A stretch of DNA of 64,000 bases, taken from the NCBI GenBank assembly GCA_016217735.1, contig JACRGQ010000059.1, positions 5,208 through 69,207 on the forward strand. Direction: 5' to 3'. The notes beneath the pieces are model-generated. The model ran no database searches, was not told where the DNA came from, and saw only the letters and a list, made by a program, of their open reading frames with translations. This DNA comes from Nitrospinota bacterium. GTDB taxonomy: Bacteria; Nitrospinota_A; UBA7883; JACRGQ01. Both the position numbers and the translations under genes were made by a program. Shown here in pieces: positions 7,625 to 54,796 of the stretch (position 1 is the first letter of the stretch; every line of letters begins with the position of its first letter).

Positions 7625-8554
7625 TCAGTTCATCGACCAGAGGTAGTAGACGCCGGGCTTGTGGACGGCGACTTCGTTCATCAGCCAGTCGAATTTGCCG
7701 GCGAGGGATGTTTTTTCGCTCATCAGCTCTTTCAGCCAGAGCATTTTTTCTTCGTGGCGCACCAGCGCCGGTTCGCCGCTGATGCCGGCGAGCTGCGCCG
7801 TCAGTTTCACCGCTTCTTCCATCCCGCCCAGCGCGTCGACCATGCCGTTGTTCTTCGCCTGGTTGCCGGTGTAGACGCGGCCGTCGGCCAGTTCCCGCAC
7901 CTTCGTTTCGGGCATATTGCGCCCTTTGGCCACGGCGGTGACGAACTGGCCGTACACGTCGTCGATCATTTCCTGCACCACCTTCTTTTCGCGCTCGGTC
8001 ATCGGGCGGAAGGCCGAGCCGGTATCCTTGAACTCGCCGCTTTTCACCACCATCGGCTGCACGCCGATTTTCCCCATCAGTTCCTGCACGTTCATCAGGT
8101 TCATGATGACGCCGATGGAGCCGGTGAGCGTGCCGGGGTTGCAGATGATCTTGTCGGCCGCCACGGCGATGTAGTAGCCGCCGGACGCGCCGAGGGTGGC
8201 CATGCTGGCGACGACTTTTTTCTTCCGCCGCGCGGCGAGGATGGCGTCGTGTATCTCCTGCGAGGGGGCGACCGCCCCGCCGGGGGAATCGATGCGGATG
8301 ATGATCGCCTTTATCGCCTTGTCGTTGGCGTAGTTCTTTATCTGTTTTACGGTCTCGTCGGCGGTCATGATGGTGCCGAAGACTTCGACCACGCCGATTT
8401 TATCTTTGCCGATGGACTTGATTGTTTCGCCGCTTGAGCCGCCGCCGAAAGGAAGGAACGAGATGAGGGCGATGAAGCCGACGGAAAGGGCGATTAAAAG
8501 AACAAACCCGGCCAGCAGCCCTTTTTTATGGGAGCTATTGGCCGGGTTTTCCAT
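7625..8554 (-). CDS. sppA: signal peptide peptidase SppA (36K type)
   Basis: N-terminal TM segment, then ClpP/crotonase-fold blocks IRIDSPGG, SMATLGASGGYYIA, GSIGV. Confidence 0.85.
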   Translation of the reverse strand: MENPANSSHKKGLLAGFVLLIALSVGFIALISFLPFGGGSSGETIKSIGKDKIGVVEVFGTIMTADETVKQIKNYANDKAIKAIIIRIDSPGGAVAPSQEIHDAILAARRKKKVVASMATLGASGGYYIAVAADKIICNPGTLTGSIGVIMNLMNVQELMGKIGVQPMVVKSGEFKDTGSAFRPMTEREKKVVQEMIDDVYGQFVTAVAKGRNMPETKVRELADGRVYTGNQAKNNGMVDALGGMEEAVKLTAQLAGISGEPALVRHEEKMLWLKELMSEKTSLAGKFDWLMNEVAVHKPGVYYLWSMN

Positions 8555-8566
8555 TGTGCGGACGGG

Positions 8567-10240
<1,674 letters not shown>

Positions 10241-10285
10241 TACGTTAAAACCTCCTGATTTACAAAATTTGCGGCGCCTGCCGCA

Positions 10286-10933
10286 TTAAGCGAGAAATTG
10301 TAAGATTTTTTCGATAGTCTCGTCAAGGCTTAAATGGGAGTTGTCTATTTCAACAGCCCCGCGCGGAACCACCAAAGGTGAAACCAGCCGGCTGGAATCC
10401 TTGGCGTCGCGTTCAACTATATGTTTTGCAATCTCTTGCGCCTTTTCCGCCGGTTCCCCCGTTTGCAAGGCGCGCCGCTTGCCACGTTCGGCGGGGTTGG
10501 CGCTAAGGAAAAATTTATGGTCGGCGTTCGGAAAAACGACGCTGCCGGCGTCGCGTCCTTCCACAATCACCGTCTTGTGTTTTTGCGCGATGCCGCGCTG
10601 TTGCGCCACCATTTTTTCCCGCACGCCGGGGTGCGCCGAAACGGCGGATATGCTGGCGTCGATCTCGGGGGTGCGGATGGCGGCGGTAACCTCGCGTCCG
10701 TTGACAAAAACTTTTTGGCCGCCTTCCGCTTCCTGAAAATCGATGGCGATAGCGCCGGCAATGGCGTCCAGTTTCGCGGCGTCGGCGGGGTTCGTCCCGC
10801 TTTCCAGCGCCAGCAGCGTCACGGAGCGGTACATCGCGCCGGTATCGAGATACACCCCCCCCAGTTTTTTGGCCAGTGCGCGGGCGGTGGTGCTCTTGCC
10901 GCTCCCCGCCGGCCCGTCAAGCGTGATAATCAT
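10286..10933 (-). CDS. cmk: cytidylate kinase
   Basis: IITLDGPAGSGKST P-loop and the CMP-kinase family pattern. Lies immediately upstream of rpsA, the classic arrangement. Confidence 0.9.
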   Translation of the reverse strand: MIITLDGPAGSGKSTTARALAKKLGGVYLDTGAMYRSVTLLALESGTNPADAAKLDAIAGAIAIDFQEAEGGQKVFVNGREVTAAIRTPEIDASISAVSAHPGVREKMVAQQRGIAQKHKTVIVEGRDAGSVVFPNADHKFFLSANPAERGKRRALQTGEPAEKAQEIAKHIVERDAKDSSRLVSPLVVPRGAVEIDNSHLSLDETIEKILQFLA

Positions 10934-12318
10934 TTTTGCAATGCTTTCAATTCGATTTCAATCCAGTCTTGAGCTTTTTTCTCCGTTTTTTCAATTGCCA
11001 TTTCAACACCCTGCTTGGCGATACGAAGAAGATTTTTTGACAACGCTTTGGTGGCATACATTTTCGAGATTTTATTTTTAATATTTTCCTGAATGCTTAA
11101 GGACAATTCCGGCAGAATAATGCGCTTAAACTCATCATCGCTTATGGCCGCTAAGATTGTGCCTGAACATCCCTTCTTAAGCTGTAATTGCCCAACCACC
11201 GACTTGAGCAAAACAAGCAAGGTCTGGGAATTAATTCCATCTGATTTGATAACAAAGAAGCCCGTTGAACATAAAGCATTATCTAAATCATCCGCAATTA
11301 GGGCGATACTTGAAAGCGACCCCTCAATTGTCGAAACAATAACATCCCCGGAATTGACTTTACGTCTTGCCCGGGTTGGTAATTCTTTGCCTTGCGCCTC
11401 AATGAATCCATTAATGTTTCCGTTGGTAGATATGTTCGCAAGCTCGATATATTGATAGAGTTCATCATCCTTCGGCTGGAAATTTTTATCCTTAATCCTA
11501 ACAATTTCGCCCAAAGGTTTATAACCCTTTTTGTATTGTTTGATGCGGTGGACCACATCCTCATACATCGGCTGAAAATATTCAGCGTCGAGGCGATTGC
11601 TAGATTGAGCACTCGAAAAATTCTTGATAAAAGAAAGACGATGTCTCGGCTTCCAGCTTAAGAAACCAAGCTCGGCAATTAATGCGTTTTCTGCTTCTAT
11701 ATAAATTGCGTTAGCGGATTCCTGCTTTTTGTAAGCGGCGTAGACTATTTCCTCTATCATAGATTGAATAGTAGGAGCCAAAACAGGAATCTGGATGTCT
11801 CGGAATTTTGCAGGACTAAAATTCGACTGATTGCTAATCATCAAATTTTTTTCTATCTGTGCCCTGCCAACTCTGCAATTTAAATAAACAACCAATGTCG
11901 CAGAATTAATTATTTTTCTCTTGGGACGAACGCGAAATAGATATGATGCAAACGCATAATCATAATCTTTGGGAACTAGGGCTGATTTTCCAACCAACTT
12001 TGGATTGCCATTTGTCCGACAAATTAGAACATCGCCTTTTTTTAAAATTAAATTCCCATATGTTTCAGCATTGATTTTGTCGCAAAACTTTTCTGGCCTT
12101 TTTATAAACATACCGTCATATTCATTTAACCTCAGAATGGGGTAGCCGTTCCCGATTTCGTTAAGTTCTTCGGATGTGCCATATTGTACAAAATCAACGG
12201 CATCCTCTCCCGTTACAAAACTAGAATCAATTTGAGATTTATGACAATAATACTCTGCCTCTAATCTCCAGATTTTATGCCTCTTTATTTCTGAAAATGT
12301 AACTATTGCAAGCCTCAT
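10930..12318 (-). CDS. hsdS: type I restriction-modification specificity subunit HsdS, two target-recognition domains
   Basis: Two TRD halves and the conserved central/terminal helices. The ATG at 12318 overlaps the hsdM TGA (ATGA), indicating translational coupling. Visibly AT-rich. Confidence 0.8.
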   Translation of the reverse strand: MRLAIVTFSEIKRHKIWRLEAEYYCHKSQIDSSFVTGEDAVDFVQYGTSEELNEIGNGYPILRLNEYDGMFIKRPEKFCDKINAETYGNLILKKGDVLICRTNGNPKLVGKSALVPKDYDYAFASYLFRVRPKRKIINSATLVVYLNCRVGRAQIEKNLMISNQSNFSPAKFRDIQIPVLAPTIQSMIEEIVYAAYKKQESANAIYIEAENALIAELGFLSWKPRHRLSFIKNFSSAQSSNRLDAEYFQPMYEDVVHRIKQYKKGYKPLGEIVRIKDKNFQPKDDELYQYIELANISTNGNINGFIEAQGKELPTRARRKVNSGDVIVSTIEGSLSSIALIADDLDNALCSTGFFVIKSDGINSQTLLVLLKSVVGQLQLKKGCSGTILAAISDDEFKRIILPELSLSIQENIKNKISKMYATKALSKNLLRIAKQGVEMAIEKTEKKAQDWIEIELKALQK

Positions 12319-14379
12319 GCTCCATTCTTCCAAAAGCTCAAATCTTCCTTTTTCGCCCACTTAATAAATGCTTCCGCAATGCCGTCAGGCAATTCACTAC
12401 CATGATTGTGCAGATCATGGTCAACGATAAGATGGCCATATTTATCTAGCTTGGGCCCCCCCCCCAGAACCATTTTTGACATAAATATATTCGCCTGAAT
12501 TATTCTTGCCGGATTTTTCTGAAACACCAAAAAAAATGGGGTAATCGTCCTTTTTAGGGCACAGTTTATCGTCCCATTTTTGTAAAAATAGGACGCTTGT
12601 CTTTGTACCCGTGTGTGGTTTAAAAGTATTTACATGGAGTCCCACAACGGCCAAAATGCAGGCTTTTTCGGCTATGTATTTCCGGATTTCTTTGTCAGAG
12701 GAGTTATTAAATCGTCCTTGCGGCAACACAATTGCCAAACGTCCGCCGGGTTTAATAAAGTCAAGGTTGCGCTCGATAAAAAGAATGTCGCGCCCAACCT
12801 TTGATTTTGGCTTGTTGTTATTGTTATAGCCTAGTTCGTATTTATGAATGATGCGGGATTCTTTAATGTCCCCAGCAAATGGCGGATTTGCCATAAGGAT
12901 ATCGAAGTCAAACTCCTTATACGAGTTGGGCTCTTTCTTAAGGTCTTCCAAGCGCCTGAAACCGTTACCATAGGTATCGCGCCACTCAAGATTAGTAACT
13001 GTTTCATTCCAACGATCATAATCGAGCGTGTTGAGGTGAAGAACGTTTGTTTCCCCATCACCGGCAATAAGATTCAATGTACGCGCCACACGAACAACCT
13101 TTTCATCAAAATCAATGCCAAAGACCTTAAGAACGTCCTCTTTTTCTTCCTGCGAGATTTCAGTGTTTTCAAAGAGGTGTCCAGTAAGCTGAAAAATCGT
13201 GTGAACAGTAAAGCCGCATGATCCAGAGGCGGTATCAATCATATATTCTCCGGGCTTTGGATTTAGCATCTTCACGCACATGTCTATCACGTGCCGAGGC
13301 GTGAAATACTGGCCTTTTTCCCCTTTGGAGGACTTGCTGACCAGATATTCAAATGCTTCGTCTATAACCTGAAGATTGGAGTTGAAAAGCTTAACGTCTT
13401 GAAGGCTTGATACACAGACAGAGAGATGAGAGGGGGAAAGTTCGATCTTGCTTTCTTCAGGGAATACGCCGTGCCATTTCCTTTTTGCCTCATCAAATAA
13501 CCTCTGAATCTTCGACTTTAATTCACCTTCGGATTGTCCGGTATTCCTGAACTCAAGTACCCGGAAATCGCTTGTGTCTACATTTTTCAAAATCGCTTTT
13601 ACTTTTTCAAAATCGCCAATTTCTTCAACTTTCAGTTTACGTTTAATTGTTCGATCTATCATGACCTTGTCATCTTTACTTTTTGTTTCGTCGTGCAATT
13701 TTGTGAAGATAAGTTTAAAGACTTCTTCAAAGACGTCTACGCCCGCGTTAGCAAGGACTTCGTCTTCCATTTCTGTGATGATTGTCTTCAGGGATTTGCC
13801 TTCATTTGGAATTTTGTCCCTGACGATGAGGTCGCGCCATGTGAAACGTTCTTTTAAAATGTCCTCCAGAGTCTGGTCGGCTTTTGGAATATCGGTTATG
13901 TCTTCAAAGAAATTGGGGTCTTTGCGGTTGTAATGGGAAATTTGCCCGCCATTTGTCCAAACGCCGATCGGGGCGCCAGTCGCGTTGCAATATGACTTAA
14001 GCTGGCCCTTCCCATCCTTGAGTTTCGGCTTTTTGACTTCAACGATAATGTATTCAACGGTTGGCCTATCCTTATCAAAGATAATAATATCCGCCGATTT
14101 TGTTTCTCTTCCAAACTGAACAGGATGCTCAAAACGTATTCGTTTTTTTGGATATCCGTATTCATTTATGAGTCTTGCGGTAAAAAGCTGACGGACAATT
14201 TCTTCAGGCTTAAGTTGGATTAGCTTTTCACGGATAATACATTTTACGTAAGGTTTGCTTTTTTCGATCGCAATTTTTTTTTCTAGGATTTTTATATCCT
14301 CGCCTGAGAAAAGGGAAAGATTGTAGTTTGAATCTTTTAGAATCGAGTCGAGCGTAGCACGATTTTTTTCATTTATCAT
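12315..14379 (-). pseudogene. hsdM: type I R-M N6-adenine methyltransferase HsdM, frameshifted at a G10 tract. Phase-variable or inactivated.
   Basis: Contains the NPPF motif and AdoMet-binding blocks. The reading frame stops at 12442. The C-terminal 45 aa continue in another frame (ORF 12315-12530) directly after poly-C at 12456-12465. A tract of 9 G restores one ORF of about 688 aa. Confidence 0.8.
12456..12465. repeat. homopolymeric C10 on the + strand (G10 on the hsdM coding strand)
   Basis: Read directly: TTGGG-CCCCCCCCCC-AGAAC. Confidence 0.9.
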
Positions 14380-14403
14380 TTTGGCTACCTTTTTTATTCC
14401 AGA

Positions 14404-14817
14404 TCAATCAATCACATCCAAGGGCAAGCTTGAGCGCACCAGATGCCTCACTTTGCGGGCCAAATCAACGGCCTCTTCCGCTTCAACTCGGGTTATCGGC
14501 TCCCATTCACCGGGATAACGGGTTTCGATCGAATACCGGTTCAATGTCTGCAAAGGGAGTTCGTGGGGATTCATGCATCCCGCTTTTATCGCCAGATTCT
14601 TAAGTAAGATCAGATCATGCGTCTTGGGAAAATCCAGTGCGTTAAAAGCAAGAAGGCCCTTTAAATATTTTTCGGCGCATTGTTGGGCGTGGAAACAAAC
14701 GGTATCGAATGGACAATCGTCTTTCAGCGTTAGTGTATGTTCCGCCGTCCGGAGGTCATGCTCGGCCTTCTCAATCCACTGTCGAACAAGCCTTCCCTTG
14801 TCAGGCGGCGCGTTCAT
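14404..14817 (-). CDS. HEPN-domain protein (toxin partner of the MNT)
   Basis: IETRYPGEW HEPN signature. The internal ATG at 14817 overlaps the MNT gene by 17 nt. Confidence 0.7.
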   Translation of the reverse strand: MNAPPDKGRLVRQWIEKAEHDLRTAEHTLTLKDDCPFDTVCFHAQQCAEKYLKGLLAFNALDFPKTHDLILLKNLAIKAGCMNPHELPLQTLNRYSIETRYPGEWEPITRVEAEEAVDLARKVRHLVRSSLPLDVID

Positions 14818-15121
14818 ACAGGACTTTTCCCTCCTTGAGCGCGGGATAAATGATTGAGCCGGCAACATCACGGTATTTCTCAGCCTCTTCCGGCGTGACC
14901 ACAATCACATCCAGCGGCAACGTGCGATCCGCCAGGGCTAAATCGATCTCCGCCGTTTTTTTTCGCTTTGACCCCTCAACCCGCATGATCACCAACAGAT
15001 CCACGTCGCTATCCCTGCCAGGCGTTCCTTTGGCGTATGATCCGAAAAGGACGATCTTTTCGGGATGAAAGCGCTTTACAATCACTTCCGCCATTTTGCC
15101 TATGGCTTCCTGATCCGTCAT
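14801..15121 (-). CDS. minimal nucleotidyltransferase (MNT, Pol-beta superfamily) antitoxin partner
   Basis: The block LFGSYAKGTPGRDSDVDLLV carries the GS...DxD motif of the Pol-beta nucleotidyltransferase fold. Confidence 0.75.
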   Translation of the reverse strand: MTDQEAIGKMAEVIVKRFHPEKIVLFGSYAKGTPGRDSDVDLLVIMRVEGSKRKKTAEIDLALADRTLPLDVIVVTPEEAEKYRDVAGSIIYPALKEGKVLYERAA

Positions 15122-15180
15122 TCCATAACTCCCGCTGTTCGTTTTGGGCGCACTTGATACGTTGATTATAATACCTTAAA

Positions 15181-16047
15181 TCACTTTTCCAGCTTTCCCC
15201 TAAATTCGTTCGCCCGCTGAAGCATCCGCATAAGCGCCTCGCGGTCATGTGAGCGGATGGCGTTTTCGATGTCCACAAGATTGCCGCGCATGGCGGATGA
15301 AAGCTCCAGCATCTTCGGCCCGTTCGCCAGCGCGATATCGGCCCACATCTCCGCCGGGCTGGCGGCGATACGGGTGGTATCTTTAAAACCACCGGCGGCG
15401 AAATCCAGCAGTTTTTCCCCACCTTCAAGTTGGCTTACCGTGTTCACCAACGCATAGACCACAAGGTGCGGCAGGTGGCTCACCGCCCCCATAACGGTAT
15501 CGTGCGTGACGGGATCCATCTGTACGGTCTTCATCCCGGCTCCGCGCCAGAATGCCGTCAGCTTTTCCAACGGTTCCGCGGGGGTGTTGGGCGTGGGAGT
15601 GACGATGCATTTGTGGTTCTCAAAAAGCGTTTCAAACGACGACGCGGCCCCCGATTTTTCGGTGCCGGCTATCGGGTGCGAACCGATGAAGACGAACCGC
15701 CCGGCGGCGATTTTCTCTCCCCGCTCCACGATCTCTTTTTTTGTGGAGCCGCCATCGGTCACCAACGCCCCCTTTTTTATGTGGGGGGCGATGGCTTCGA
15801 GGGTGGGGATTATGGAGAGGACTGGCGGGCAGAGCACGATGAAATCGGCTTCCTTTACCGCCTCGGCCGCCGGGAGCGCGGCATCGATGATGCCAAGTTC
15901 GAGGGCGGCCTTTAAATTTGCCTCGCCCCGTCCCGCGCCGATTACCCGCTTGGCCATGCCGCGGTTCTTCAATACACGGGCTATCGAACCGCCGATAAGC
16001 CCGACGCCGATGATGACAGCGGTATCAAAAAAAGGTTTTTTATTCAT
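15181..16047 (-). CDS. tyrA: prephenate/arogenate dehydrogenase
   Basis: Rossmann motif VIIGVGLIGGS plus the TyrA catalytic blocks (GSHPIAG, HD..MA..SHLPH). Confidence 0.85.
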   Translation of the reverse strand: MNKKPFFDTAVIIGVGLIGGSIARVLKNRGMAKRVIGAGRGEANLKAALELGIIDAALPAAEAVKEADFIVLCPPVLSIIPTLEAIAPHIKKGALVTDGGSTKKEIVERGEKIAAGRFVFIGSHPIAGTEKSGAASSFETLFENHKCIVTPTPNTPAEPLEKLTAFWRGAGMKTVQMDPVTHDTVMGAVSHLPHLVVYALVNTVSQLEGGEKLLDFAAGGFKDTTRIAASPAEMWADIALANGPKMLELSSAMRGNLVDIENAIRSHDREALMRMLQRANEFRGKLEK

Positions 16048-20280: not shown

Positions 20281-21288
20281 TTAACAGGTCTTAACGATAC
20301 GCCGTAGAAATTCCTCAAATGTTACACACCGATTAGGGGGAATTGCTGCTGCAATCCAGTTTTTCCCTCGGCCCGGTTTAATTGTCCCGTCCTTTTTTAA
20401 TGGCACCTTAAGATAAACTGGCTCATCCAAAAAGAAATAAGTATATTCTTTCGCTCCTTTATCCTTCTTTACTCCATCCATCCAACGCTCAACACACTCT
20501 GGAGCCTTATTCCCCTTTTCTTCTGCAAAACGCATTAAATCAGTTTTAAATTGACCAATATTTCGGGGAGCGACTGTTAATATTCCCAATATGCGTGCGA
20601 CACAGGGTATTCCCTCACCCTTTTCCTGCTTTGCGCTCCTTGTAAAATGAGGTGCAAAATATTGTGGATTTCCAAAAATAACATTTCTTCGATAAACCAA
20701 ACACTCATAGAACTTACGAACTTCTTCGGCTCTTCCCAAGTCTTGAACTAATATCTCTTTGCGCGACCTCATTGCAAATCCTCTCAATGCAAAACGAAAA
20801 AAATTTCCTGCTATTTGATTGTCCCAAAATGATTTTTCATCAAATGCACTTAAAACGTCACTCCATGTTAAGTCAACCACTCGAATATTCCCGGACGAGG
20901 ACTTGCGGGAACTGTTTTCCTGAGCAATAAAACATAGGATTCTATGTTTAGCATCTTTTTCGAAAGCAGATAAATATTGGGTTTTTTGCTTGCCAATACG
21001 ATTCTTCCTTACCTTACACTCAATAATTACTTGAAATGTTTTTTTTCGGTAAATATTTATATCTATTCTTCCCTCCTTTACGACCTTTTCAGTAGAAATT
21101 TCGACCTGTTGAAAATTACCTAAGTTGAACTTAACCTTCAAGCCGATAAAGCGTAAAAACTTATACAGAAACTTCGGCTCATGCCCTAATGTATACGCAA
21201 AAGCTTTAGATAAACCAACCTCATCGCTTCCCAAGAGATCAAAATTCGTTAAATGCGAACGATCGTAGCCAGCATTTTTTATGATCAT
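20281..21288 (-). CDS. hypothetical protein with N-terminal PD-(D/E)xK nuclease-like motif, in an AT-rich single-gene insertion
   Basis: A Glu, then GRIDINIY (Asp), then QVIIECKV (E-x-K) matches the restriction-endonuclease-like core. Strongly AT-rich relative to flanks. Confidence 0.55.
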   Translation of the reverse strand: MIIKNAGYDRSHLTNFDLLGSDEVGLSKAFAYTLGHEPKFLYKFLRFIGLKVKFNLGNFQQVEISTEKVVKEGRIDINIYRKKTFQVIIECKVRKNRIGKQKTQYLSAFEKDAKHRILCFIAQENSSRKSSSGNIRVVDLTWSDVLSAFDEKSFWDNQIAGNFFRFALRGFAMRSRKEILVQDLGRAEEVRKFYECLVYRRNVIFGNPQYFAPHFTRSAKQEKGEGIPCVARILGILTVAPRNIGQFKTDLMRFAEEKGNKAPECVERWMDGVKKDKGAKEYTYFFLDEPVYLKVPLKKDGTIKPGRGKNWIAAAIPPNRCVTFEEFLRRIVKTC

Positions 21289-23536: not shown

Positions 23537-25819
23537 CTATTCCCGCTCCGCCTTTTGGTAATCGCCGATTTTCTTTTCGATCTCGCCCAGCAGGAAGCGG
23601 AGCTCGGTGATCTGCCCGGAGGCCTTGTCGATGATCTTTTCCTCGGAGGCGAGCACCTTGATCTTGGTCTTGATGTCTTCGGCGAGGAGGTTGAGATCGT
23701 TGAGCCGCTGTTCGGTGCGGTTGATAAGCGCCATGCGGGAGTTGAGGACGTCGATTTTGGTTTCGGCCTCGCCCATGATGGAGGAGAGGGACCTGATCTT
23801 GTCCGATATTTCGCCGAACGACTCCTGGTGCTTGGCGATCTTCCGTTCCTGCGCGCGAAGGTCTTCTATCTGCGAGGTGAGGACGAGAATGTCTTCCTGG
23901 ACTTTCTTGATGAGCGCCTCTTCCTTGCCGATCTGGTCGGCCTGGCGGGAGGTCTTTTCCATCATGTTGCCGAGCATGTTGAGCCGTTTTTCGGTCTCGA
24001 TGAGGAGTTCCTCTTCGTCGCGGACGCTTCCCAGCCGTTTTTCCAGGTCGGCCAGCCGCGCCTGGATGCCGCCCAGCTTCTCTTCGGTGCCCGCGAGCTG
24101 CTGGCTCCGGGAGGCGAGGCTGCTTATCTGGCCGTCCACCTTGTCGACCGCCGGCATGAGTTCTTCCTTGGCTTTGATGATTCCCTGCAGGAGGTTGTTC
24201 CCTTCCCGCACGTCTTCAAGCTTGCCCGACACGCTTTCCTCGATGACGACCAGCTTGCTGCCCAGCATCTGGAGGCGGCGCTCCTGGGCGTCTATGACGC
24301 TCTTCTCGCGGGTGATGTCCAGTATCTTCTCTTCCACCTGGCGGGTGATTTCGCGCAGGTCTTCCACTTTCTTGTCGAGGTTTTCGAGGAACTCGACCTT
24401 CTTGTTGATCCGGTCCACCTTCAGCGTGGCGTCTTCGATGTAGTAGTCGAGGCCGTCCAGCTTCTTCTCCAGCTTCTCGACGAGGGCCTTGCGCTGGAGC
24501 TGGTTTTCCATCTTCACATCGAGGTTGATGACGGTGGAAGAGAGGGTATTGACCTTTTTCTCCACCTGGTCGACGATGTTGCGGCGCGCCGAAAGGTCGT
24601 TCATCTGGGCGTTGAGCACTTCGTGCATGCCGCCCATCTTCTTGAGCTTCACTTCTATTTCTTCGCTGATCTTGATATCCTCGCGGAAGCGCTGGAGCTT
24701 GAGTTCGAGGTCGTCCGCCTCCTGCTGGAAGCGGGCCATTTTTTCGCGGGCGGACTCCACGGCCCCCATGTCATCCTTGAGTATCTTCATCTTGTTGCCG
24801 ATGGAATCGATGAGGAAGACGTTGAGCTTGTTGATCTTCTCCTCGGTGGCGGCCACCACGTCCTTGTCTTCGCGCACGCGGGTGACATTCACTTCCAGCT
24901 CGCTGTTCATTTCCTCAAGCTGCTTGAGCTTGGCGCCGATGCGCTTGATCATGTCTTCTTTCATCATGATGTTGCCGGTTTCCACGCGCAACGCGTTCAT
25001 GTCCTTGATCAGTTGGGCCACGTCGCGGTTCATCTGGGTCACCAGCGCGTTCTGGCGGAGCAGGTCTTCGCTGCTTGCCTGCAGGCGGCCGATGGTCTGC
25101 CCGATTTTCTCGATGTCCTGCCCGTAGCCGTCGATTTCTTCCTTCTGGCGGGCGATGCGGCCGATCTTGTCTTCCAGTTCGCGGCTGATGCCCTGCAAAC
25201 GGCCGATCTGTTCGTCCGAGGTTTTGAGCAGCCCCTTGAAGGTTTCGATGTCCTGCATCCGGTCGCCCACTTTGTCCAGCATCTCCTCGAGGCGGACGAT
25301 GCCCTTTTCGGTTTGCTTGACCAGCTTGTTCTCTTCGCCAAGCTTCTTGACCTTGGCTTCCATGTCCCAGATCAGGATGTTGAGCTTGCCGGCCTCTTCG
25401 TTGGCTTTTTCCACCACGAGCCGCTGCTGGTTCAGCGCCTTCACCTTGCTTTTCACATGTTCGGCGATCAGCGAGACCTCGTCCACCGCCATGCGGTGCT
25501 CATGCAGGCGGCCGGCGCTTTCTTCCACGCCGGAGGCGATGTCTTTCACGCGGATTTCGAGGTTGCGCAGTTCTTCGAATTTCCCCCCCATCTTGTCGGC
25601 GAATTCGCTGAAGAAGGGGATTTTGCTTTCGAGGTTCTTCATCGTGGTGACGTTCTGGTTCACCTTGTCGATGTTGTTCTGGATGTATTCGACGAGAAGG
25701 TTGAGGCTCTTGCGCTGCGCGTCGGCCTCTTTCACCAGATCGGCAAAGCGGTTAATGTCTTCCCGCGTGAGCTGCGCGTTCCCCTGCGCGGCCGTCTTTT
25801 CCTGTTCCATCGGCAACAA
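23537..25819 (-). CDS. long coiled-coil protein (about 760 aa), hypothetical
   Basis: Uninterrupted heptad-like K/E/L/I/Q-rich sequence with no recognisable enzymatic motif. The opposite-strand ORF (1047 aa) is low-complexity Ala/Gly/Val-rich and was rejected. Confidence 0.6.
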   Translation of the reverse strand: MLPMEQEKTAAQGNAQLTREDINRFADLVKEADAQRKSLNLLVEYIQNNIDKVNQNVTTMKNLESKIPFFSEFADKMGGKFEELRNLEIRVKDIASGVEESAGRLHEHRMAVDEVSLIAEHVKSKVKALNQQRLVVEKANEEAGKLNILIWDMEAKVKKLGEENKLVKQTEKGIVRLEEMLDKVGDRMQDIETFKGLLKTSDEQIGRLQGISRELEDKIGRIARQKEEIDGYGQDIEKIGQTIGRLQASSEDLLRQNALVTQMNRDVAQLIKDMNALRVETGNIMMKEDMIKRIGAKLKQLEEMNSELEVNVTRVREDKDVVAATEEKINKLNVFLIDSIGNKMKILKDDMGAVESAREKMARFQQEADDLELKLQRFREDIKISEEIEVKLKKMGGMHEVLNAQMNDLSARRNIVDQVEKKVNTLSSTVINLDVKMENQLQRKALVEKLEKKLDGLDYYIEDATLKVDRINKKVEFLENLDKKVEDLREITRQVEEKILDITREKSVIDAQERRLQMLGSKLVVIEESVSGKLEDVREGNNLLQGIIKAKEELMPAVDKVDGQISSLASRSQQLAGTEEKLGGIQARLADLEKRLGSVRDEEELLIETEKRLNMLGNMMEKTSRQADQIGKEEALIKKVQEDILVLTSQIEDLRAQERKIAKHQESFGEISDKIRSLSSIMGEAETKIDVLNSRMALINRTEQRLNDLNLLAEDIKTKIKVLASEEKIIDKASGQITELRFLLGEIEKKIGDYQKAERE

Positions 25820-27186: not shown

Positions 27187-29331
27187 ATGCCGATGAAAGA
27201 GGTCTTCACGAAGGATATCTTCCTTCGTATGCAGGGACTGGTGTTTCTTGTTTTCCTTTTCGCGCTCGGTCTTGCCGCCGCCCTTCTGATGGCGGAACGC
27301 AAAGAACTGCGGCGGGCGGAGCAGTATCGCCTGATGGACGAAACGGCGGGACGCCTGAACAACGCCGCCGGCCTGCACGCGCTCGAACGCGGCATCGGCA
27401 ACACCATCCTCGGCACGGAATTTCCCACCCCCGCGATGATCCAACGGTTCAACGAAATCGGCGGCAAGGCCGACGTGGAAACGAACGCCGCGCTGGGGAA
27501 CTTCAAAGAACTTATGGCGACGGATTTCGACCGCGACGTGGAGCGGTTGCTGGCCGGATGGAAGCGGCGGCTGGCGGGGCTTGACGCGGCCCGGAAAAGG
27601 GTCGCCGCGCATGACATCAAGACGGAGGAATGGGTTGCCGCCGCCTCCGAAAACATCGAAACCGAGTTCCATCTGCGCGACACGATATTCGCCCCCCACG
27701 AGATCGGGGAAAAAATCATGTACTACAACATCGTGATCCGGGCCAACGTCGCCAAGTTGTGCGAATACGCCGGACGCGAGCGCGCGCTGCTGGGGGGGCT
27801 GATCGCCGCGGGCCGTCCGATCCCGCCGGAAACGGCGGAGACGTTGCGCGGCTACCGGGTCATCGTGGACGATACCGTCGGCAGGGTGTTGGGGTTGCGC
27901 CAGTTGGAGGAAACGCCGGCATCGCTTCTGGCGGCCATCGACCGTTTTGAGAGGGTCTTTTTGACCGATTACGAAAACACGCGCAAAGCGGTGTACGCCG
28001 CTTCGGCGGCGCGCGCCCCCTATCCGCTTTCAGGGGAAGCCTGGCTGGTCAAAGCCACCGAAGCCATCGATTCCGGGCTGGACATCTCGCGCGCGGTCGG
28101 CGACATATCCAGAGGCGGCGTGATGGACATCCGCAACCATGCGCTCATCCGGGCGGGACTTTACATGCTGGTGTTCCTGGCGGCATTGGCCGTCTTCGGC
28201 CTTATTCTCTGGCAAAAGGCGGCGCAAGGCAGGTTGCAGATTGAAAAGGGCGAGGCCGAAAAGGCGACGGAAATGAAAAACAAACTCCTTTCCCTGGTCG
28301 CGCACGACCTGCGCGGCGGTTTCAGCACCATCCTTTCCCTGTTGAAGCGCGTCGGGGGCGAAGCGGAATCGCCCCCCGCCGTGTACCGCGCCACCGTCTC
28401 CCGCGTCATCCTGATAGTGGAAAACCTGCTGCGCATGACCGAGGAGATACTGAGTATCAACCGCATCAAGGGCGGCCAGCTGGGGGTGAAGCGGGAATTC
28501 ATGGACGTGCGGCGCGCGGTCGATTTGGTGTTTGAGCGCGTGGCCCAACAGGCCGACGAGAAGGGCGCCACGCTGGTGAACGCCGTTCCCGCCGGCATAC
28601 GGTTCTACGCCGACCCCAATCTGATGGAGGAGGTGTTCCACAACCTGATCACCAACGCCATCAAGTTCTGCAAAAAAAACGAGGGGCGGGTGGAGGTGGG
28701 CACCCCCTTCGGCAGGAACGGCGTCGTCACCGTCAGGGACAACGGCATCGGCATTCCGGAGGCGCTGCTGGGGAAAATCTTCAAACATGAGGAGAAGACC
28801 AGCCGCGCCGGCACTTCCGGCGAACGGGGAACCGGGCTCGGCCTCCCTCTTTGCGGCGACATCATCGCCGCGCACAGCGGCACGATCGCGGCGGAATCGG
28901 CCGCGGGGGGCGGAAGCATGTTCACGATCACCCTGCCGTACCGGCGCCCGTATGCCGCCATCATGGGGGACGACGTCCAGTTCATATCCACCCTTGAAAA
29001 GTTTTTTGCCAATAATTTGAATGTGGAAGTGGTGGAGGTCGATACCCCCTACGCGCTCACAAAAACCGCATCCAGCGGCGGCTGTCCGGAATTCATCATC
29101 ATCGCCGCCCAGGCGGGCAACGCCAACATCCTGAACTTCCTCTCCGCGTTGCGCGGCATAGACGAGTATGCCCGCACCCCGCTCATCGTCGCGGGGAACG
29201 AGGCGGATGCCGCGAACAAGGCGCAGTACATCCGCGCGGGGGCCAACCACTTCCTCCAGAAACAGAACGCCGAGAAGGAGTTGCTGGTGCTGGCGAAGCG
29301 GTACATCGGCCCGCGCGACGCCGCCGCGTAA
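27187..29331 (+). CDS. hybrid sensor histidine kinase: two TM helices flanking a ~290-aa periplasmic sensor, HisKA, HATPase, and a C-terminal receiver-like domain
   Basis: H-box LVAHDLRGG. N/G1/G2 boxes (NLITNAIKF, RDNGIGI, GTGLGL). C-terminal FIIIAA...PLIVAGNEADA receiver-like fold. Confidence 0.8.
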   Translation: MPMKEVFTKDIFLRMQGLVFLVFLFALGLAAALLMAERKELRRAEQYRLMDETAGRLNNAAGLHALERGIGNTILGTEFPTPAMIQRFNEIGGKADVETNAALGNFKELMATDFDRDVERLLAGWKRRLAGLDAARKRVAAHDIKTEEWVAAASENIETEFHLRDTIFAPHEIGEKIMYYNIVIRANVAKLCEYAGRERALLGGLIAAGRPIPPETAETLRGYRVIVDDTVGRVLGLRQLEETPASLLAAIDRFERVFLTDYENTRKAVYAASAARAPYPLSGEAWLVKATEAIDSGLDISRAVGDISRGGVMDIRNHALIRAGLYMLVFLAALAVFGLILWQKAAQGRLQIEKGEAEKATEMKNKLLSLVAHDLRGGFSTILSLLKRVGGEAESPPAVYRATVSRVILIVENLLRMTEEILSINRIKGGQLGVKREFMDVRRAVDLVFERVAQQADEKGATLVNAVPAGIRFYADPNLMEEVFHNLITNAIKFCKKNEGRVEVGTPFGRNGVVTVRDNGIGIPEALLGKIFKHEEKTSRAGTSGERGTGLGLPLCGDIIAAHSGTIAAESAAGGGSMFTITLPYRRPYAAIMGDDVQFISTLEKFFANNLNVEVVEVDTPYALTKTASSGGCPEFIIIAAQAGNANILNFLSALRGIDEYARTPLIVAGNEADAANKAQYIRAGANHFLQKQNAEKELLVLAKRYIGPRDAAA

Positions 29332-29374
29332 TACCCTATTTTCCCTTCTGATTTTGTCAACCCGCTCCCAGCCT

Positions 29375-29440
29375 TGTCATCCCCGCGCAGGCGGGGATCC
29401 AGAAATATTTTCAAAGCTTTCCCTGACTTCCTGGGGCCGC
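29375..29440. mobile_element. truncated copy of the MITE family (left hairpin end plus internal AATATTTTCAAAGCTTTCCCT)
   Basis: GTCATCCCCGCGCAGGCGGGGATCC then AGAAATATTTTCAAAGCTTTCCCTGA matches the left half of the element at 38720-38872. The right half is absent. Confidence 0.5.
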
Positions 29441-29965
29441 ACTCTCTGAATCGTAGACATTCCATACTTTGTTCTCGCTTGAATTGACAACATCAATTTG
29501 AGCGAAGGGGGGCCTTGATGCGCTTAAATCGTGGCGCAATTTCTCCCAATCGAAAGTATCAAAAATCCAAAAGTTAGCATATATAACTAATGTCCATGAA
29601 CTTGTGTCAATTCCCATGTACTTTTTCTTTTTTTTATCAATTGCGTCCTTGATCCATTCAATTCCATTCTCACCTATGCCAGATAGATCATCTTCACGTG
29701 ATTGAGGGGAAAAGCCTTGTTGTGCGCGTGTTAAATCGCCTTTATATTCATCCCCTCTTTTGCGTCCTTCTTTCATCACCTCTGTAACTTCAACAGGTAT
29801 AGTTTCATTAATCAAGAAATCCGGGGGATTGGCACCTTTCACTATGCTGAAATTCTTTGACGGGAATTTTACCTTTAACCAATTTTCGACCGTCTGCCTT
29901 TCCCGGCCATCTCGACCATAATTGGAAAAAAATGCCAGCCGCTTTTTGGCTTCGTCTAAATCCAT
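29411..29965 (-). CDS. hypothetical protein (184 aa) in an AT-rich insertion; the last 9 codons are MITE-derived
   Basis: ORF with K/E/D-rich low-GC composition. The stop codon and C-terminus lie inside the truncated MITE copy. No confident family; a PD..EVTEV..K pattern is only suggestive. Confidence 0.45.
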   Translation of the reverse strand: MDLDEAKKRLAFFSNYGRDGRERQTVENWLKVKFPSKNFSIVKGANPPDFLINETIPVEVTEVMKEGRKRGDEYKGDLTRAQQGFSPQSREDDLSGIGENGIEWIKDAIDKKKKKYMGIDTSSWTLVIYANFWIFDTFDWEKLRHDLSASRPPFAQIDVVNSSENKVWNVYDSESAAPGSQGKL

Positions 29966-29978
29966 TCGGTTCGCCCCC

Positions 29979-31400
29979 CTACGGCAAATTGATAACGAGG
30001 CTCTTCGGCTCGGTCATTTCCTCTATCGCGTAGCGCAGCCCTTCGCGGCCGAGGCCGGAGCCTTTCACGCCGCCGTACGGCATGTGGTCGATGCGGAACG
30101 TCGGCACGTCACCTATCATCACGCCCCCCACGTCGAGCGTTTCCCACGCGGCGAAGGAAGCGCGGAGATCGTTGGTGAAGACGCCGGCTTGCAGGCCGAA
30201 CTCGCCGTCATTGAGCAGCGCCAGCGCCTCGTCCATCGTGGCGTAGGGGGTCAGCGTCACCACAGGCCCGAACACCTCCATGCAGTTCACCTTCATTCGC
30301 GGGGTTGTCCGCTCCAGCACGGCCGGCTGGAGGATGCTTCCCTCTCCTTTTCCGCCGCACAGGATTTTCGCCCCTCCCTCGACCGCTTCGTCAATCCAGC
30401 CGAGGATGCGTTGCACCTCGCGCGGGGAGATGAGCGGGCCGACGCTGGTGGCCTCGTCCAGCGGGTCGCCGGTTTTCAGGGTGGCCACCTTCGGGATGAA
30501 AAGCGCCTTGAACTTTTCGTAAACCCCTTGTTGCACGAAGACGCGCTGCACCGATATGCAGGTCTGCCCCGCATAGCTGAAACCGCCGGTGACGATCCGG
30601 CCGGCGGCGTATTCAAGATCGGCGTCGCCATGCACGATCACCCCGGCGTTGCCGCCCAGCTCCAGCGCCACCTTCTTTTTCCCCGCGATATTCTTCAGCA
30701 TCCACCCCACGCCGGGACTGCCGGTGAACGAGAGCATTTTGTAGCGCGCGTCGCGCGCCATCGTTTCCGCCAATTCGTTGGTGGCGGGCAATACCGAGAA
30801 CGCTCCTTTGGGCCAGCCCGATTTGTCCACAATCTCCGCCAGCAGCAGCGCGGTCAGCGGCGTTTGCGGCGCGGGTTTTATCACGATGGGATTTCCCGCC
30901 GCCATCGCGGGGGCCGCTTTGTGCGCCACAAGGTTGAGCGGAAAATTGAACGGCGTGATGCCGAGGATCGGGCCGATGGGGAACCGCTTCACGAAGCACT
31001 GCCGCCCTTTCGCCAGCGGGTGGATGTCGAGCGGCAGCACTTCGCCGGAAATGCGTTTTGTCTCTTCGGCGGCGGCGAGGAACGTAAAAATGCTCCGCTG
31101 CACCTCCTGCCGCGCGTTAAGGATCGGCTTCCCCGCCTCCAGCGCGATGACGCGGGCCAATTCCCCGGCGCGGGCGGCTATGCCGTTGTGGATTTCCATT
31201 AAAATGGCCGCGCGGTCAAGCGGCGCAAGTTTTCTGGTTTCTTTGAAAGAGGCCAGCGCGGCGGCGGCGGACTCTTCCGCCTCCGCGTCCCCGGCGATAA
31301 AAACTTCCCCTATTGTTTCGCCGCTGAACGGCGCGGTGACGGCGGTCTTTTTCGCGGTGGCGGTAAAACGCCCGGCAACGTAAATCGGATACTCGCGCAT
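29979..31400 (-). CDS. NAD(P)-dependent aldehyde dehydrogenase
   Basis: ALDH family catalytic blocks (ELGGNAG, FSYAGQTCISVQR) over the full length. Confidence 0.9.
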   Translation of the reverse strand: MREYPIYVAGRFTATAKKTAVTAPFSGETIGEVFIAGDAEAEESAAAALASFKETRKLAPLDRAAILMEIHNGIAARAGELARVIALEAGKPILNARQEVQRSIFTFLAAAEETKRISGEVLPLDIHPLAKGRQCFVKRFPIGPILGITPFNFPLNLVAHKAAPAMAAGNPIVIKPAPQTPLTALLLAEIVDKSGWPKGAFSVLPATNELAETMARDARYKMLSFTGSPGVGWMLKNIAGKKKVALELGGNAGVIVHGDADLEYAAGRIVTGGFSYAGQTCISVQRVFVQQGVYEKFKALFIPKVATLKTGDPLDEATSVGPLISPREVQRILGWIDEAVEGGAKILCGGKGEGSILQPAVLERTTPRMKVNCMEVFGPVVTLTPYATMDEALALLNDGEFGLQAGVFTNDLRASFAAWETLDVGGVMIGDVPTFRIDHMPYGGVKGSGLGREGLRYAIEEMTEPKSLVINLP

Positions 31401-50514: not shown

Positions 50515-50835
50515 CACATATTCCCGTCCGGTCAAAAAAGCCTGAATTCCGTTGCTGTTTCTGATATTTGCGGCATTGTGGAAAACACGATTATTGCAAG
50601 TTTTGCCGCGTACGCCAAATTATTTACGGCGTTGGGGCCGGGTGGGTGGATATGACAAAAGCAAAGGCGCGAAATATGGCGCATAACGGCATGTATTGCA
50701 ATGCGTTGCTGTTTTGTCAGGGGTCGCCGGACACGGATTCGGTGAGGGCATGGTGTTTGCATCCTTAATATTGAGCGGCAGATACCCGTCCGTTTTTTGG
50801 CGCTTCCTTGGGGAGCGGCTAACGGATGGGATATA

Positions 50836-53800
50836 ATGAAGCCCGTTGAGGAGGAGTATACGTTGAAGGAACAGGTGAGCGGTTCGGCCGTTGCCACCCG
50901 CATCTTCGCGGTTACCGGCACCGGCGGCGGTTGCGGCAAATCATTGGTTGCCGCGTTCGCCGCGGCGGCTCTGGCGCGCGCCGGGAAAAAGGTGCTGTTG
51001 CTGGATATTAATGAAGGCTCCAGCGCCGCCTGCCGCATTTTCGGCGTCACCGCTCCCGAAACATCCCTGATCGATTTCTACGCCAAGACCAAAAGCATAG
51101 CCGACCTCGCCGCGGAAACGCCGGTGAAGGGACTTTCGTTTCTCCGCGCGGCGGGAAGCCCCCGCGGCGGGCGCAACCGGATTCCGGCCCGCGGCAACCT
51201 GATACAACGGCTGCGCCGGTCGGGGGCGGATTATGTGGTGGTCGACATCGGCCGGATAGCCAATAGGCGTGCGGCCGATTATTTTCTCGGGGCCGACGGC
51301 CGCGCCATTATCGCCGCCGCCAGCGAACCGGGAATGGACGGTCTGCGCGACACCCTGTTGACAGTGGCTATTCGCCGGTTTGAACGGTTGGTAATAAAGG
51401 CGGAGGGCGGTGCGGAGGCGGTGCGCGAGATAGACAAAAAGCGAACCCTTGAGGCCGCTCCGCTGCTTGCCCACATTGGCGCCATGCTTAAATTGCGCTA
51501 TCCCCGCCTGTTGCCCGCGTGGGAACAGGCGCGCGCCGCGCTCGATTGCAACGTTATCGTCAACTCCGTTTCATCGCCGGATCACATGGAGGCCGCGGGA
51601 CGGAGGCTCAAGACCGCGCTCGACGGCGTGGGGATCGATGTCCGCAAGGTGTTTTACCTGCCGGTGTTCGTGTTGCCGCCGTCGCTGGCGCGGCCGGGGG
51701 CCAGTCCGCAACTGGACGCGGTGGGGCCGGTGGCGCTCGATATCGCCGGCGTGGAAGAACTGGGCGAGGAGCGGATGCGCCAGGGGCTGGAGCGCCTGTT
51801 TGGCGCGCCGGTGGCCGGGGCCGCGCCGCATGCCGCCGCCGAAAAGGCCGAGATGTTCGCCGCGCTGGAGCGGGAAATGGAGATGGAACGCGCGCGCCGC
51901 GCCGCCCTGCTGGAGCGGGAGATGGAGCGGCTCAAGACCGAGCGGAGCGCGCAGGCGGCCAAGCGGCTGGACGCCGAGCTGGCCGAACGCCGCAAGCGGG
52001 GCCTGGAAGAACTGAACGGATGGACGGAACAGCAGCGGCGTGAGCGTCAGATACGGCTCGATAAGGACTACGAAACCATGAAGGCGGATTGCGCCGCCCG
52101 CCTGACCGCCGAAACGGGATTGAAGGAACGCGAGGCGCTCGACGCCATGGACAAGGTGAAGGAGTACCGCCTCAAGGAGATCGACGCGCAGATCGAGGCC
52201 TACTACCGCGCCGCCAAGGTGGCCGCCGACCGCGATATCGCCCAGCGCCGCAAGATGGCGGAAACGGAAATCGACGGCGGCCTGCTGATGCAAAAAAAGA
52301 AGAAACTGGCCCGGATGGAAACGGAACTCGCCGAAGAGGTGGAAAAAATCCGCGAAATGATCTGGCAGCAGCTGGAGGAAAAACGCCGCGCCCGCATCGA
52401 AGAGATCGACCGCGCGGTGGAGGGCCACCGCGAAAATAAAATGCTGGCGGTGGATACCGAAGTTTCCGCCGTCCGGCGCGAAGTGGAAAAAGACCTCGAG
52501 GCGGAGATCGCCCGCACGCGCGATTACCTCACCGCCGACATCCACCGCGACGTGATGCTGCTTGCCGGCGAGATGGATGTGGAGGAGCACCGCCGCCGCG
52601 CCGGCATCCGCCGCACCCTGGAGCAGGAGACCGATGCCGAGCGCGCCATGATGAAAAAGGCGCTGATGGCGGAAATGGCCCGCCTGCGCGAAGAGAAGGA
52701 AAAGGAACTCGCCCCGCTGCTGGAAAAAATACGGCAGGAACGGCTGGCCCACCTGGAGCAGGAGATCGGGCGGCTGCGCGAGCAGATCAAGGGCCGCATG
52801 ACGATGGAGGCCGAACAGACCCGCCAGAAGCTGATGATGGAGGCGCAGACGGACGCCGGACGCCGCCGGGAGGAATTGCTGGCGCAACTGGAGGCCGACC
52901 GCCAGGCGCGGCTGGTGGATATGGGCCGCGACATCGCGCAGGACCGCGCCACCCGCATCGCCAGCCTGGACCGCGAAATGGCGCGCGTGGCGGACGATTT
53001 GCGCGCCAACATGGAACAGCGCGTGTCCGAGGAAGAGGCGCGCCTCACCGGCATGATGGAAGAGGCGATCCGCCAGAAGCGCAAGGAAAAGGAAGAGACG
53101 ATTATCGGCATCATCCGCGAGGAGCGGCAACGCCGCGTGCAGGAGCTGAACGAAGAACTGCTCCGCCAGCGCGAGGGTCTTATGGACGCCATCGCCGCCG
53201 AGATGCGCCTCTGCCGCGATCAGGAGATCGAAAAGGTGCGCGCCGAGATAACGCATATCCGCGCGCAGCGGCTCGGCCAGCTGGATCAGGATATGCAGGC
53301 GGAAATCCGCCGCAAGACCGAGGCGATGGGGCATACCATCCGCGATGTGGAGACCGCCATGCGCGGCGAAATGCGGGAACGCATAAGCGCCGAGGAAACG
53401 CGCATGCGTAAAGCGCTGGCCGAGGAGATCAATGCCGAAATGGCCGAGATGCGCGCCCGCGTACGCGCCGATATCGGCGACGAAGAGACGCGCCTGAAAG
53501 CCGGGCAGAAGGCCGCGCTGGAAGATGACCGCAAGCGGCGGCTGGAGGCGTGGGACCGGGAGATGGAGTTGCGCCGGAGCAAGGCCGAGGAGTCCCTGCG
53601 GGAGTGGCAGGAGCGTGAAAGGATGCGCCTGCTGGGCGAGCTGGACGTGAAACTGCAAGAGGAAGGGCAGGTAAGGCGCGAGCTGCTGGAAAGCCGCGTG
53701 GAGTACGACAGGAAAAAAATCGCCGACGAAATCGCCGCCCACCGCCGGAAGGCGGAGGAGGATGAACAGCGCCGGATGAAACTCTGGGCCGAGCACAAAC

Positions 53801-54756: not shown

Positions 54757-54796
54757 CCCCCCCCCAAAAAAAATCTCCGGCTACGGAAGAGCATTG

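Follow-up and report, generated by a model that had tools for sequence, protein, structure and literature searches.

Could a run of ten guanines close to the 3′ end of a restriction-modification (R-M) gene act as an ON/OFF switch? The question is raised by a stretch of 64,000 nucleotides (nt) from a Nitrospinota bacterium (assembly GCA_016217735.1, contig JACRGQ010000059.1, positions 5,208 to 69,207 of the forward strand), which we call the window. In this window, the gene for a fused nuclease-methyltransferase subunit, RM, breaks off just after such a run (G10), and the gene for a specificity subunit, S, follows intact. A first-pass annotation had proposed the gene as a phase-variable type I methyltransferase. 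On the basis of the sequence, we find phase variation credible but unproven, as one static sequence cannot show switching. The parts of the locus on which the argument turns are listed here, with lengths in amino acids (aa) and the basis of each assignment in brackets.

12442..14379, minus strand: truncated RM frame, 645 aa, ending ...NGSGGGAQAR before its stop (open reading frame (ORF) list, translation, Pfam)
12456..12465, minus strand: G10 homopolymer; G9 in frame would encode Gly-Gly-Gly (sequence reading)
12315..12455, minus strand: displaced C-terminal tail PKLDKYGHLIVDHDLHNHGSELPDGIAEAFIKWAKKEDLSFWKNGA, 46 codons plus TGA (in frame only with G9 or G12)
10930..12318, minus strand: S gene, 462 aa, intact (Pfam Methylase_S in two stretches; PADLOC Specificity_I models)
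14274..14282, minus strand: nine consecutive A's (A9) early in the RM gene, over codons E-K-K-I, which at their present number leave the frame open (homopolymer listing)

What does the run do to the reading frame? A C10 on the plus strand, read directly as G10 on the coding minus strand, occupies 12456-12465, and the minus strand around it reads ...AAT GGT TCT GGGGGGGGGG CCC AAG CTA GAT AAA..., with the G's at 12465-12456. The RM ORF (14379..12442) opens with an ATG at 14379 and closes with a TAA at 12444-12442, 11 nt from the last G of the tract and 93% of the way along the gene; translation finds no stop codon in the RM frame besides this tract-caused one. The sequence and the ORF thus both confirm the break that the first-pass annotation had placed at the run. 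Loss of one G in silico produces a single ORF of 687 aa (about 688 in the earlier estimate), with the C-terminus ...EDLSFWKNGA, the terminal sequence ...AKKEDLSFWKNGA and a TGA at 12317-12315. As had also been claimed, this TGA shares bases with the ATG of the S gene at 12318-12316 (ATGA). The G11 version likewise stops early (GGGGPS, then a stop codon), so that the frame is kept with G9 or G12 and lost with G10 or G11, and a change of the tract by one unit swaps the full-length product (G9, 687 aa) and the truncated one (G10, 645 aa). In the G10 state, the tail frame also has an ATG of its own at 12482, which opens a 55-aa ORF, MSKMVLGGGPKLDKYGH...FWKNGA (12482-12315, minus strand), whose stop still overlaps the S start and which the gene caller of Logan lists as a gene.

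Which enzyme does the repaired frame encode? Pfam assigns residues 58-165 to HSDR_N_2, the PD-(D/E)xK nuclease domain known from the R subunits of type I systems (E 1.3e-27), and residues 338-610 to N6_Mtase (E 1.6e-35). An alignment of 65 homologues (numbering of homologue P0002) shows no variation in the nuclease motifs E84, D97, E114-x-K116 and Q126xxxY130, and none in methyltransferase motif I (D-x-A-x-G-S-x-G-F) or motif IV (NPPF). Sequence comparison with solved structures ranks RM.BsaXI, a type IIB enzyme, first (E 3.7e-18); the match is modest and lies mainly in the methyltransferase domain. The ExK motif of RM lines up with E105/K107 of BsaXI, and the cryo-electron microscopy study of that enzyme reports both residues to be required for cleavage (PMC11997821). 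Further PDB matches are the M subunit of EcoKI and other HsdM chains, and the PADLOC MTase_I model PDLC03034, a REBASE-derived type I methyltransferase model, matches RM with 960 bits. From its N-terminus onwards, the chain would accordingly consist of a PD-(D/E)xK domain of HsdR type, connected by a helical linker to an N6-adenine methyltransferase, and would close with a C-terminal tail that is short and conserved.

This layout does not fit the plain type I hsdM of the first-pass annotation, given the N-terminal HSDR_N_2 nuclease, the best match to RM.BsaXI and the lack of HsdR in the loci examined. No ORF for HsdR or a helicase (ResIII) occurs in the foreign island that carries the cassette (described below) or among the other large ORFs of the window. 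Similarly, no HsdR was found at the locus of the closest homologue, where RM and S stand alone between housekeeping genes, in ten large ORFs flanking other homologues or beside a Klebsiella plasmid copy. The type I features that are present are an HsdM-type methyltransferase and an HsdS-type specificity subunit, as seen in the PADLOC and PDB matches; the classical type I class fails because no HsdR motor subunit was found at these loci and because the nuclease domain is fused to the methyltransferase. On the other hand, the features of a type IIB RM+S enzyme are found together: nuclease and N6-adenine methyltransferase on one chain, a separate HsdS-like subunit and no translocase at the locus. 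Judged by sequence, the locus is a two-gene RM+S cassette of type IIB-like (BcgI/BsaXI) architecture with a methyltransferase of type I (HsdM) lineage. As in BcgI and BsaXI, a nuclease, a helical connector and a gamma-class N6-adenine methyltransferase make up RM, the S subunit is HsdS-like with two domains, and there is no translocase. Unlike BsaXI, RM has no knob or paddle elements and measures 687 aa rather than 916 aa, and the likeness is one of sequence, whereas it is two-sided cleavage that defines type IIB. The gene should be annotated as a [quoted passage not shown] rather than as "hsdM".

Membership of a MADS system (methylation-associated defence system) was also considered and rejected. 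The best NCBIfam matches of RM and S are MAD2 and MAD5, the PADLOC mad2 and mad5 models match as well, and RM resembles MAD2 in its layout of a nuclease-like N-terminus followed by a methyltransferase. The scores miss the curated cut-offs by a wide margin (294.6 against 720 for MAD2 and 96.8 against 400 for MAD5), and the island has none of the remaining mad genes.

Is the full-length protein the normal form of this enzyme? The RM family is very large, with at least 8000 candidates at E ≤1e-10, and our comparisons used 119 proteins (P0002-P0120, the closest among the matches listed), 84 genes and the 65-sequence alignment. The 119 proteins are 79-90% identical to RM and come from many phyla. 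With the tail they measure 676-712 aa, save for two that are apparently incomplete (639 and 657 aa). Because the homologues are full length with a conserved tail, the full-length protein is the normal form, and the earlier claim that removal of one G restores a single protein gains weight from this. Ten positions of the tail are invariant in the 65 homologues (D644, H648, L655, L662, G665, E668, F670, W673, F681 and W682 in P0002 numbering), and, read against the homologue tails, all ten appear to be kept in the out-of-frame tail of the window.

The tract itself is a property of the window allele. At its site, the homologues have the consensus KNG[DEN]GK[PRN]KLDKYGH, and Gly-Gly-Gly occurs there in none of the 119 proteins. 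Their DNA has 9 nt at this position, with the consensus GACGGCAAG (AATGGCAAG in the closest homologue), and the window has 13 nt, TCTGGGGGGGGGG (TCT+G10), which is 4 nt more on balance. G/C runs of at least 8 nt and A/T runs of at least 9 nt are absent from all 84 homologous RM genes, whereas the window allele has both G10 and A9. Outside the tract, GGG is the rarest glycine codon of the RM gene (6 of 42), and three consecutive GGG codons therefore point to growth by slippage rather than to codon choice. In the window allele, Ser plus poly-G has taken the place of a variable surface loop (homologue consensus NG[DEN]GK[PRN]K). Seen from these comparisons, the tract is allele-specific, and its most plausible origin is an in-frame run of G's that slippage lengthened within a surface loop tolerant of change, rather than one inactivating hit.

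Could the gene instead be a fixed pseudogene, in which a frameshift struck a chance G-rich stretch after acquisition, with no regulatory meaning, in a cassette that is starting to decay? The confinement of the tract to the window allele speaks for it, and so does the occurrence of inactivated copies in the RM family: in one of the 84 homologues, the Thiotrichales copy L043, an ordinary frameshift comes from one extra nucleotide within a short stretch of T's (~7830) that is not a simple sequence repeat (SSR). Newly acquired nuclease genes are, moreover, commonly selected against. However, no single mutational step leads from GACGGCAAG to TCT+G10, which differ by a net 4 nt and several substitutions, so that an in-frame G-run allele must have existed earlier. 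The rest of the cassette is also intact, with S at full length and the catalytic motifs of RM and the residues of the out-of-frame tail retained, and a G10 would revert often, which makes "fixed" hard to sustain without selection for OFF. We consider a fixed pseudogene possible and somewhat unlikely.

Is the run real, and is it exceptional? G10 is the longest homopolymer of the window. The number of G/C runs of at least 10 nt expected in the whole window is ~0.4 if bases are independent and identically distributed and ~0.33 under a first-order Markov model, and only ~0.0015 are expected in the island of 41% guanine plus cytosine (GC) that holds the cassette. The other long G/C runs in the window are these:

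3583: G8
4157: G8
32947: G8
10855: C8
54757: C9

Homopolymers of about 10 nt are classic sites of indel error, and the true run could be G9, with an intact gene and G10 as an error of sequencing or assembly. The 23 other listed runs of the window (G/C runs of 7-9 nt and A/T runs of 8-9 nt) argue otherwise, as none of them causes a frameshift; since all leave their host ORFs unbroken, homopolymer errors are not widespread in this assembly. The first-pass annotation had named G9 in an independent assembly as the mark of a simple sequencing error. The Logan contig SRR12113407_27323 (5506 nt, run SRR12113407), made with a different assembler, equals window positions 10234-15739 at 100%, G10 included. 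It may have been built from the reads behind the window, and would then add no independent evidence, so that the point in favour of a miscount remains; the agreement of two assemblers on G10 over 5506 nt is nevertheless unlike what noisy long-read data give. An assembly artefact is unlikely to be the source of G10, and we regard a miscount of any kind as quite improbable. The poly-G artefact of two-colour Illumina chemistry was considered separately and would be ruled out, as such tails form at read ends and would yield no k-mers joining both correct flanks.

Where does the cassette come from? The features of its surroundings are as follows:

10941..15179 (4239 nt), no strand: inserted island of ~41% GC with MNT, HEPN, RM and S (composition, blastn breakpoints)
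15121-14801, minus strand: MNT nucleotidyltransferase (Pfam NTP_transf_2; Logan contig gene calls)
14904 or 14817 to 14404, minus strand: HEPN (Pfam HEPN; Logan contig gene calls)

The window has ~60% GC, and positions 11001-15000 only 40-45%. Among the closest rpsA homologues, nearly all of those with a named source are from Nitrospinota; the rpsA product of the window is not itself on record as an exact match. The island is flanked by tyrA (16143-15181) and cmk (10933-10286). In L084, a related contig from Nitrospinota, these two genes share the bases GTGA and no sequence separates them (L084 9300-9311). The two contigs share 97% amino-acid identity in rpsA and 85-91% nucleotide identity in the flanks, and blastn places the breakpoints between them at 15180 and 10940. 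The motif AAAA[G/A]TGAT is present at both junctions. Because this low-GC island is precisely inserted in the window and missing from L084, the cassette is a recent horizontal acquisition, which also fits a pseudogene of foreign and recent origin. The junction sequences show that the TGA of S overlaps the ATG of cmk; as the last gene of the island re-creates the stop-start overlap (ATGA), cmk is now translationally chained to foreign genes. The S protein is 56% identical over its full length to the S beside the closest RM homologue, and its second half has diverged, as expected of a different target-recognition domain. The MNT and HEPN genes at the 5′ end of the island are, by their domains, a toxin-antitoxin-like pair. 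A scan of the island for promoters and terminators was uninformative, with counts equal to those in shuffled sequence.

The island also changes the weight of the earlier remark that such a tract would be notable in a high-GC lineage. The host genome does have a high GC content, and the cassette is itself freshly acquired low-GC DNA; homopolymer phase variation is, furthermore, known in the high-GC genus Mycobacterium. In Mycobacterium tuberculosis, reversible frameshifts in short G/C homopolymers are reported for glpK and other genes (PMC10334774). In the cases covered there, the genes are chromosomal metabolic or virulence genes and reversibility was shown experimentally, whereas the tract of the window lies in foreign low-GC DNA.

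What would the G10 state take away from the enzyme? The frame shifts 46 codons before the end, and the 645-aa product would keep its catalytic domains and lose the tail. In the RM+S type IIB enzymes except BsaXI, and in M.EcoKI, a lone C-terminal helix joins the conserved regions CR1/CR2 of S in a four-helix bundle (PMC11997821). From its conservation and this literature, the lost tail would be such a lone helix, bundling with the conserved regions of S. A profile search of the PDB with the alignment aligned the C-terminal tail to no solved chain. The AlphaFold2 model of P0002, built from the 65-sequence alignment, reached a mean predicted local distance difference test score of 47 and a predicted template modelling score of 0.33, poor values that we ascribe to the shallow alignment (79-91% identity). 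It was not used for a fold search, and its helix at residues 666-676 is a weak hint only. The S subunit would probably be affected as well: stop-start overlap normally brings ribosomes to the start of S, and with translation of RM ending 124 nt short of that point, S would lose this upstream supply.

The most likely phenotype of the OFF state is consequently a joint loss of sequence-specific methylation and cleavage, which would amount to a safe silencing of the R-M system. The first-pass annotation had expected the methyltransferase to be silenced. The methyltransferase would indeed be included; as the nuclease domain is fused to it, OFF would silence a nuclease-methyltransferase and not a methyltransferase alone. 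The state would be reversible in principle (G10 to G9), since a run such as G10 by its nature slips readily during replication.

Alternatively, might the G10 allele be expressed as it stands, through slippage of RNA polymerase or +1 ribosomal slippage on GGG_GGG_GGG_G, and so be constitutively "low" rather than OFF? A long homopolymer would allow tRNA-Gly to re-pair in the +1 frame, and the tail and the S start are preserved in the shifted frame. Against this, there is no stimulatory context, the stop lies 11 nt past the run and not at the slip site, no internal Shine-Dalgarno sequence is evident, and the homologues contain no such device. Transcriptional slippage is, in addition, documented mainly for A/T runs. 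We hold expression by slippage to be highly improbable.

How does a switch at this position compare with known ones? The closest precedent is cj0031 of Campylobacter jejuni, a fused R-M gene that is ON with G9 and OFF with G10, with a tract at 69% of the gene that is limited to some alleles and that most homologues do not have (PMC4889913). Switching was measured there in colonies (75 with G10 and 13 with G9) and, according to the authors, removes restriction and modification at once (PMC4889913). The RM gene shares with cj0031/cj0032 the fusion of nuclease and methyltransferase, a poly-G inside the ORF far from its 5′ end, the G9 ON/G10 OFF relation, the allele-specific tract and a split into two ORFs, which in cj0031 comes from the original annotation. 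The absence of the tract from the homologues of RM is no argument against switching, since the cj0031 tract is also absent from most of its homologues. There are also differences. The type IIG enzyme made from cj0031 is a single chain that includes the recognition domain, encoded after the tract, whereas S is here a separate gene; the tract of RM lies farther downstream and removes only a 46-residue tail; and Campylobacter genomes have 12-29 such tracts each (PMC4889913), whereas the 64-kb window shows no other.

A second comparison is offered by type I systems. In a survey of REBASE that applied one length criterion to hsdM, hsdS and hsdR genes (at least 9 units for mononucleotides), 2% of hsdM genes contained SSRs, for the most part towards their 5′ ends (Atack et al. 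2019, PMC7383803), and G10 is long enough to count as an SSR on that scale. As in the SSR-bearing hsdM genes of Haemophilus influenzae and Mannheimia haemolytica (PMC7383803), the repeat lies in the methyltransferase subunit gene of an M+S system and a change in its length means ON or OFF. Those examples have pentanucleotide repeats and full hsdR/M/S sets in host-adapted pathogens, whereas the cassette of the window has a mononucleotide repeat at the 3′ end and no hsdR, in an environmental Nitrospinota.

Taken together, we favour, with moderate confidence, a slippage-driven ON/OFF switch of the cj0031 kind on a recently acquired type IIB-like RM+S cassette, with OFF as the consensus of the sampled population. 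Several observations weigh against a switch. The sole state observed is OFF: no G9, G11 or G12 allele appears in any searched collection, where G10 alone is on record. A search of 5.8 billion protein clusters returned only the 645-aa form at 100% identity, in a cluster of size 1, and a pattern scan of Joint Genome Institute (JGI) metagenome contigs, which allowed 5-15 nt between the tract flanks, gave 0 matches. The G10 tract is missing from about 200 homologues (84 genes and 119 proteins), and its place at 93% of the gene contrasts with the mostly 5′ location of hsdM SSRs (PMC7383803). The five G/C runs of 8-9 nt in the window compare with ~4.8 runs of at least 8 nt expected by composition, and these other runs lie in housekeeping genes. 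Finally, it is conservation and literature that speak for the role of the tail, the AlphaFold2 model being too poor to probe it. That the OFF allele alone is seen wherever we searched is also a point for the fixed pseudogene. The protein search found no allele above 90% identity other than that of the window itself.

A bolder version of the switch can be formulated. In it, poly-G would be a de novo contingency switch on the cassette of an uncultured, free-living Nitrospinota, and OFF would detach the S-docking tail, leaving a 645-aa core and a separate 55-aa tail ORF stop-start coupled to S ("subunit-uncoupling"), possibly with distinct activities in each state and with A9 as a second slippage site. 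A runs of that length are known sites of RNA polymerase slippage in other systems. We think this version unlikely, and offer it as speculation.

What would a switch at this locus mean? SSR-driven control of R-M systems has so far been described mainly in host-adapted pathogens. If switching is true, such ON/OFF control would reach a phylum of environmental chemolithoautotrophs and an RM+S cassette of type IIB-like design, and it would work by loss of a subunit-docking tail and not by early truncation. If there is no switching, the locus is an ordinary example of a recently gained defence gene disabled at a homopolymer. As poly-G control of R-M genes is already well known, at most the host and the position of the tract in the gene are unusual here.

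The homologue survey also yielded observations on the RM family at large. Homologues 79-90% identical to RM occur across Omnitrophota, Planctomycetota, Elusimicrobia, Bacteroidota, Chloroflexota and Nitrospirota (loci L002-L083, proteins P0002-P0120), and copies ~73-77% identical occur in groups of the candidate phyla radiation (CPR) and in the archaeon Methanoperedens. These sequence identities point to a very wide and recent horizontal spread of the compact RM cassette. Poribacteria genomes contain the RM gene in two or three tandem copies (L061 2978-8073; L068 1-8079), and another Poribacteria copy (L066) has a C9 run in the RM-S spacer, at 8090-8098. The homologue on plasmid pAQ6 of Picosynechococcus PCC 7002 (L085 4995-8534) is one 1179-aa "N-6 DNA methylase" ORF with room for an S-like portion, and in L007, L010 and L016 the RM frame extends to ~1030 codons. 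In these four, RM is apparently fused to S, as in single-chain type IIB/IIG enzymes.

Elsewhere in the window, the C9 run at 54757 is followed by A8 (C9 then A8, 54757-54773), directly after the stop of a 1319-aa ORF (50797-54756, plus strand) and between convergent genes. This ORF has a ParA-like N-terminus and is strongly A-rich. Together with another large ORF (23537-25819, minus strand), it shows an extreme AT skew (~-0.37 for 23537-25819 and ~+0.40 for 50797-54756), and the Pfam matches of both are weak, of coiled-coil type or ParA-like. Further patches of low GC content lie at 20281-21288 (43%) and 29001-30000 (50%); the first holds an ORF of the PD-(D/E)xK_4 nuclease family and may be a second foreign insertion.

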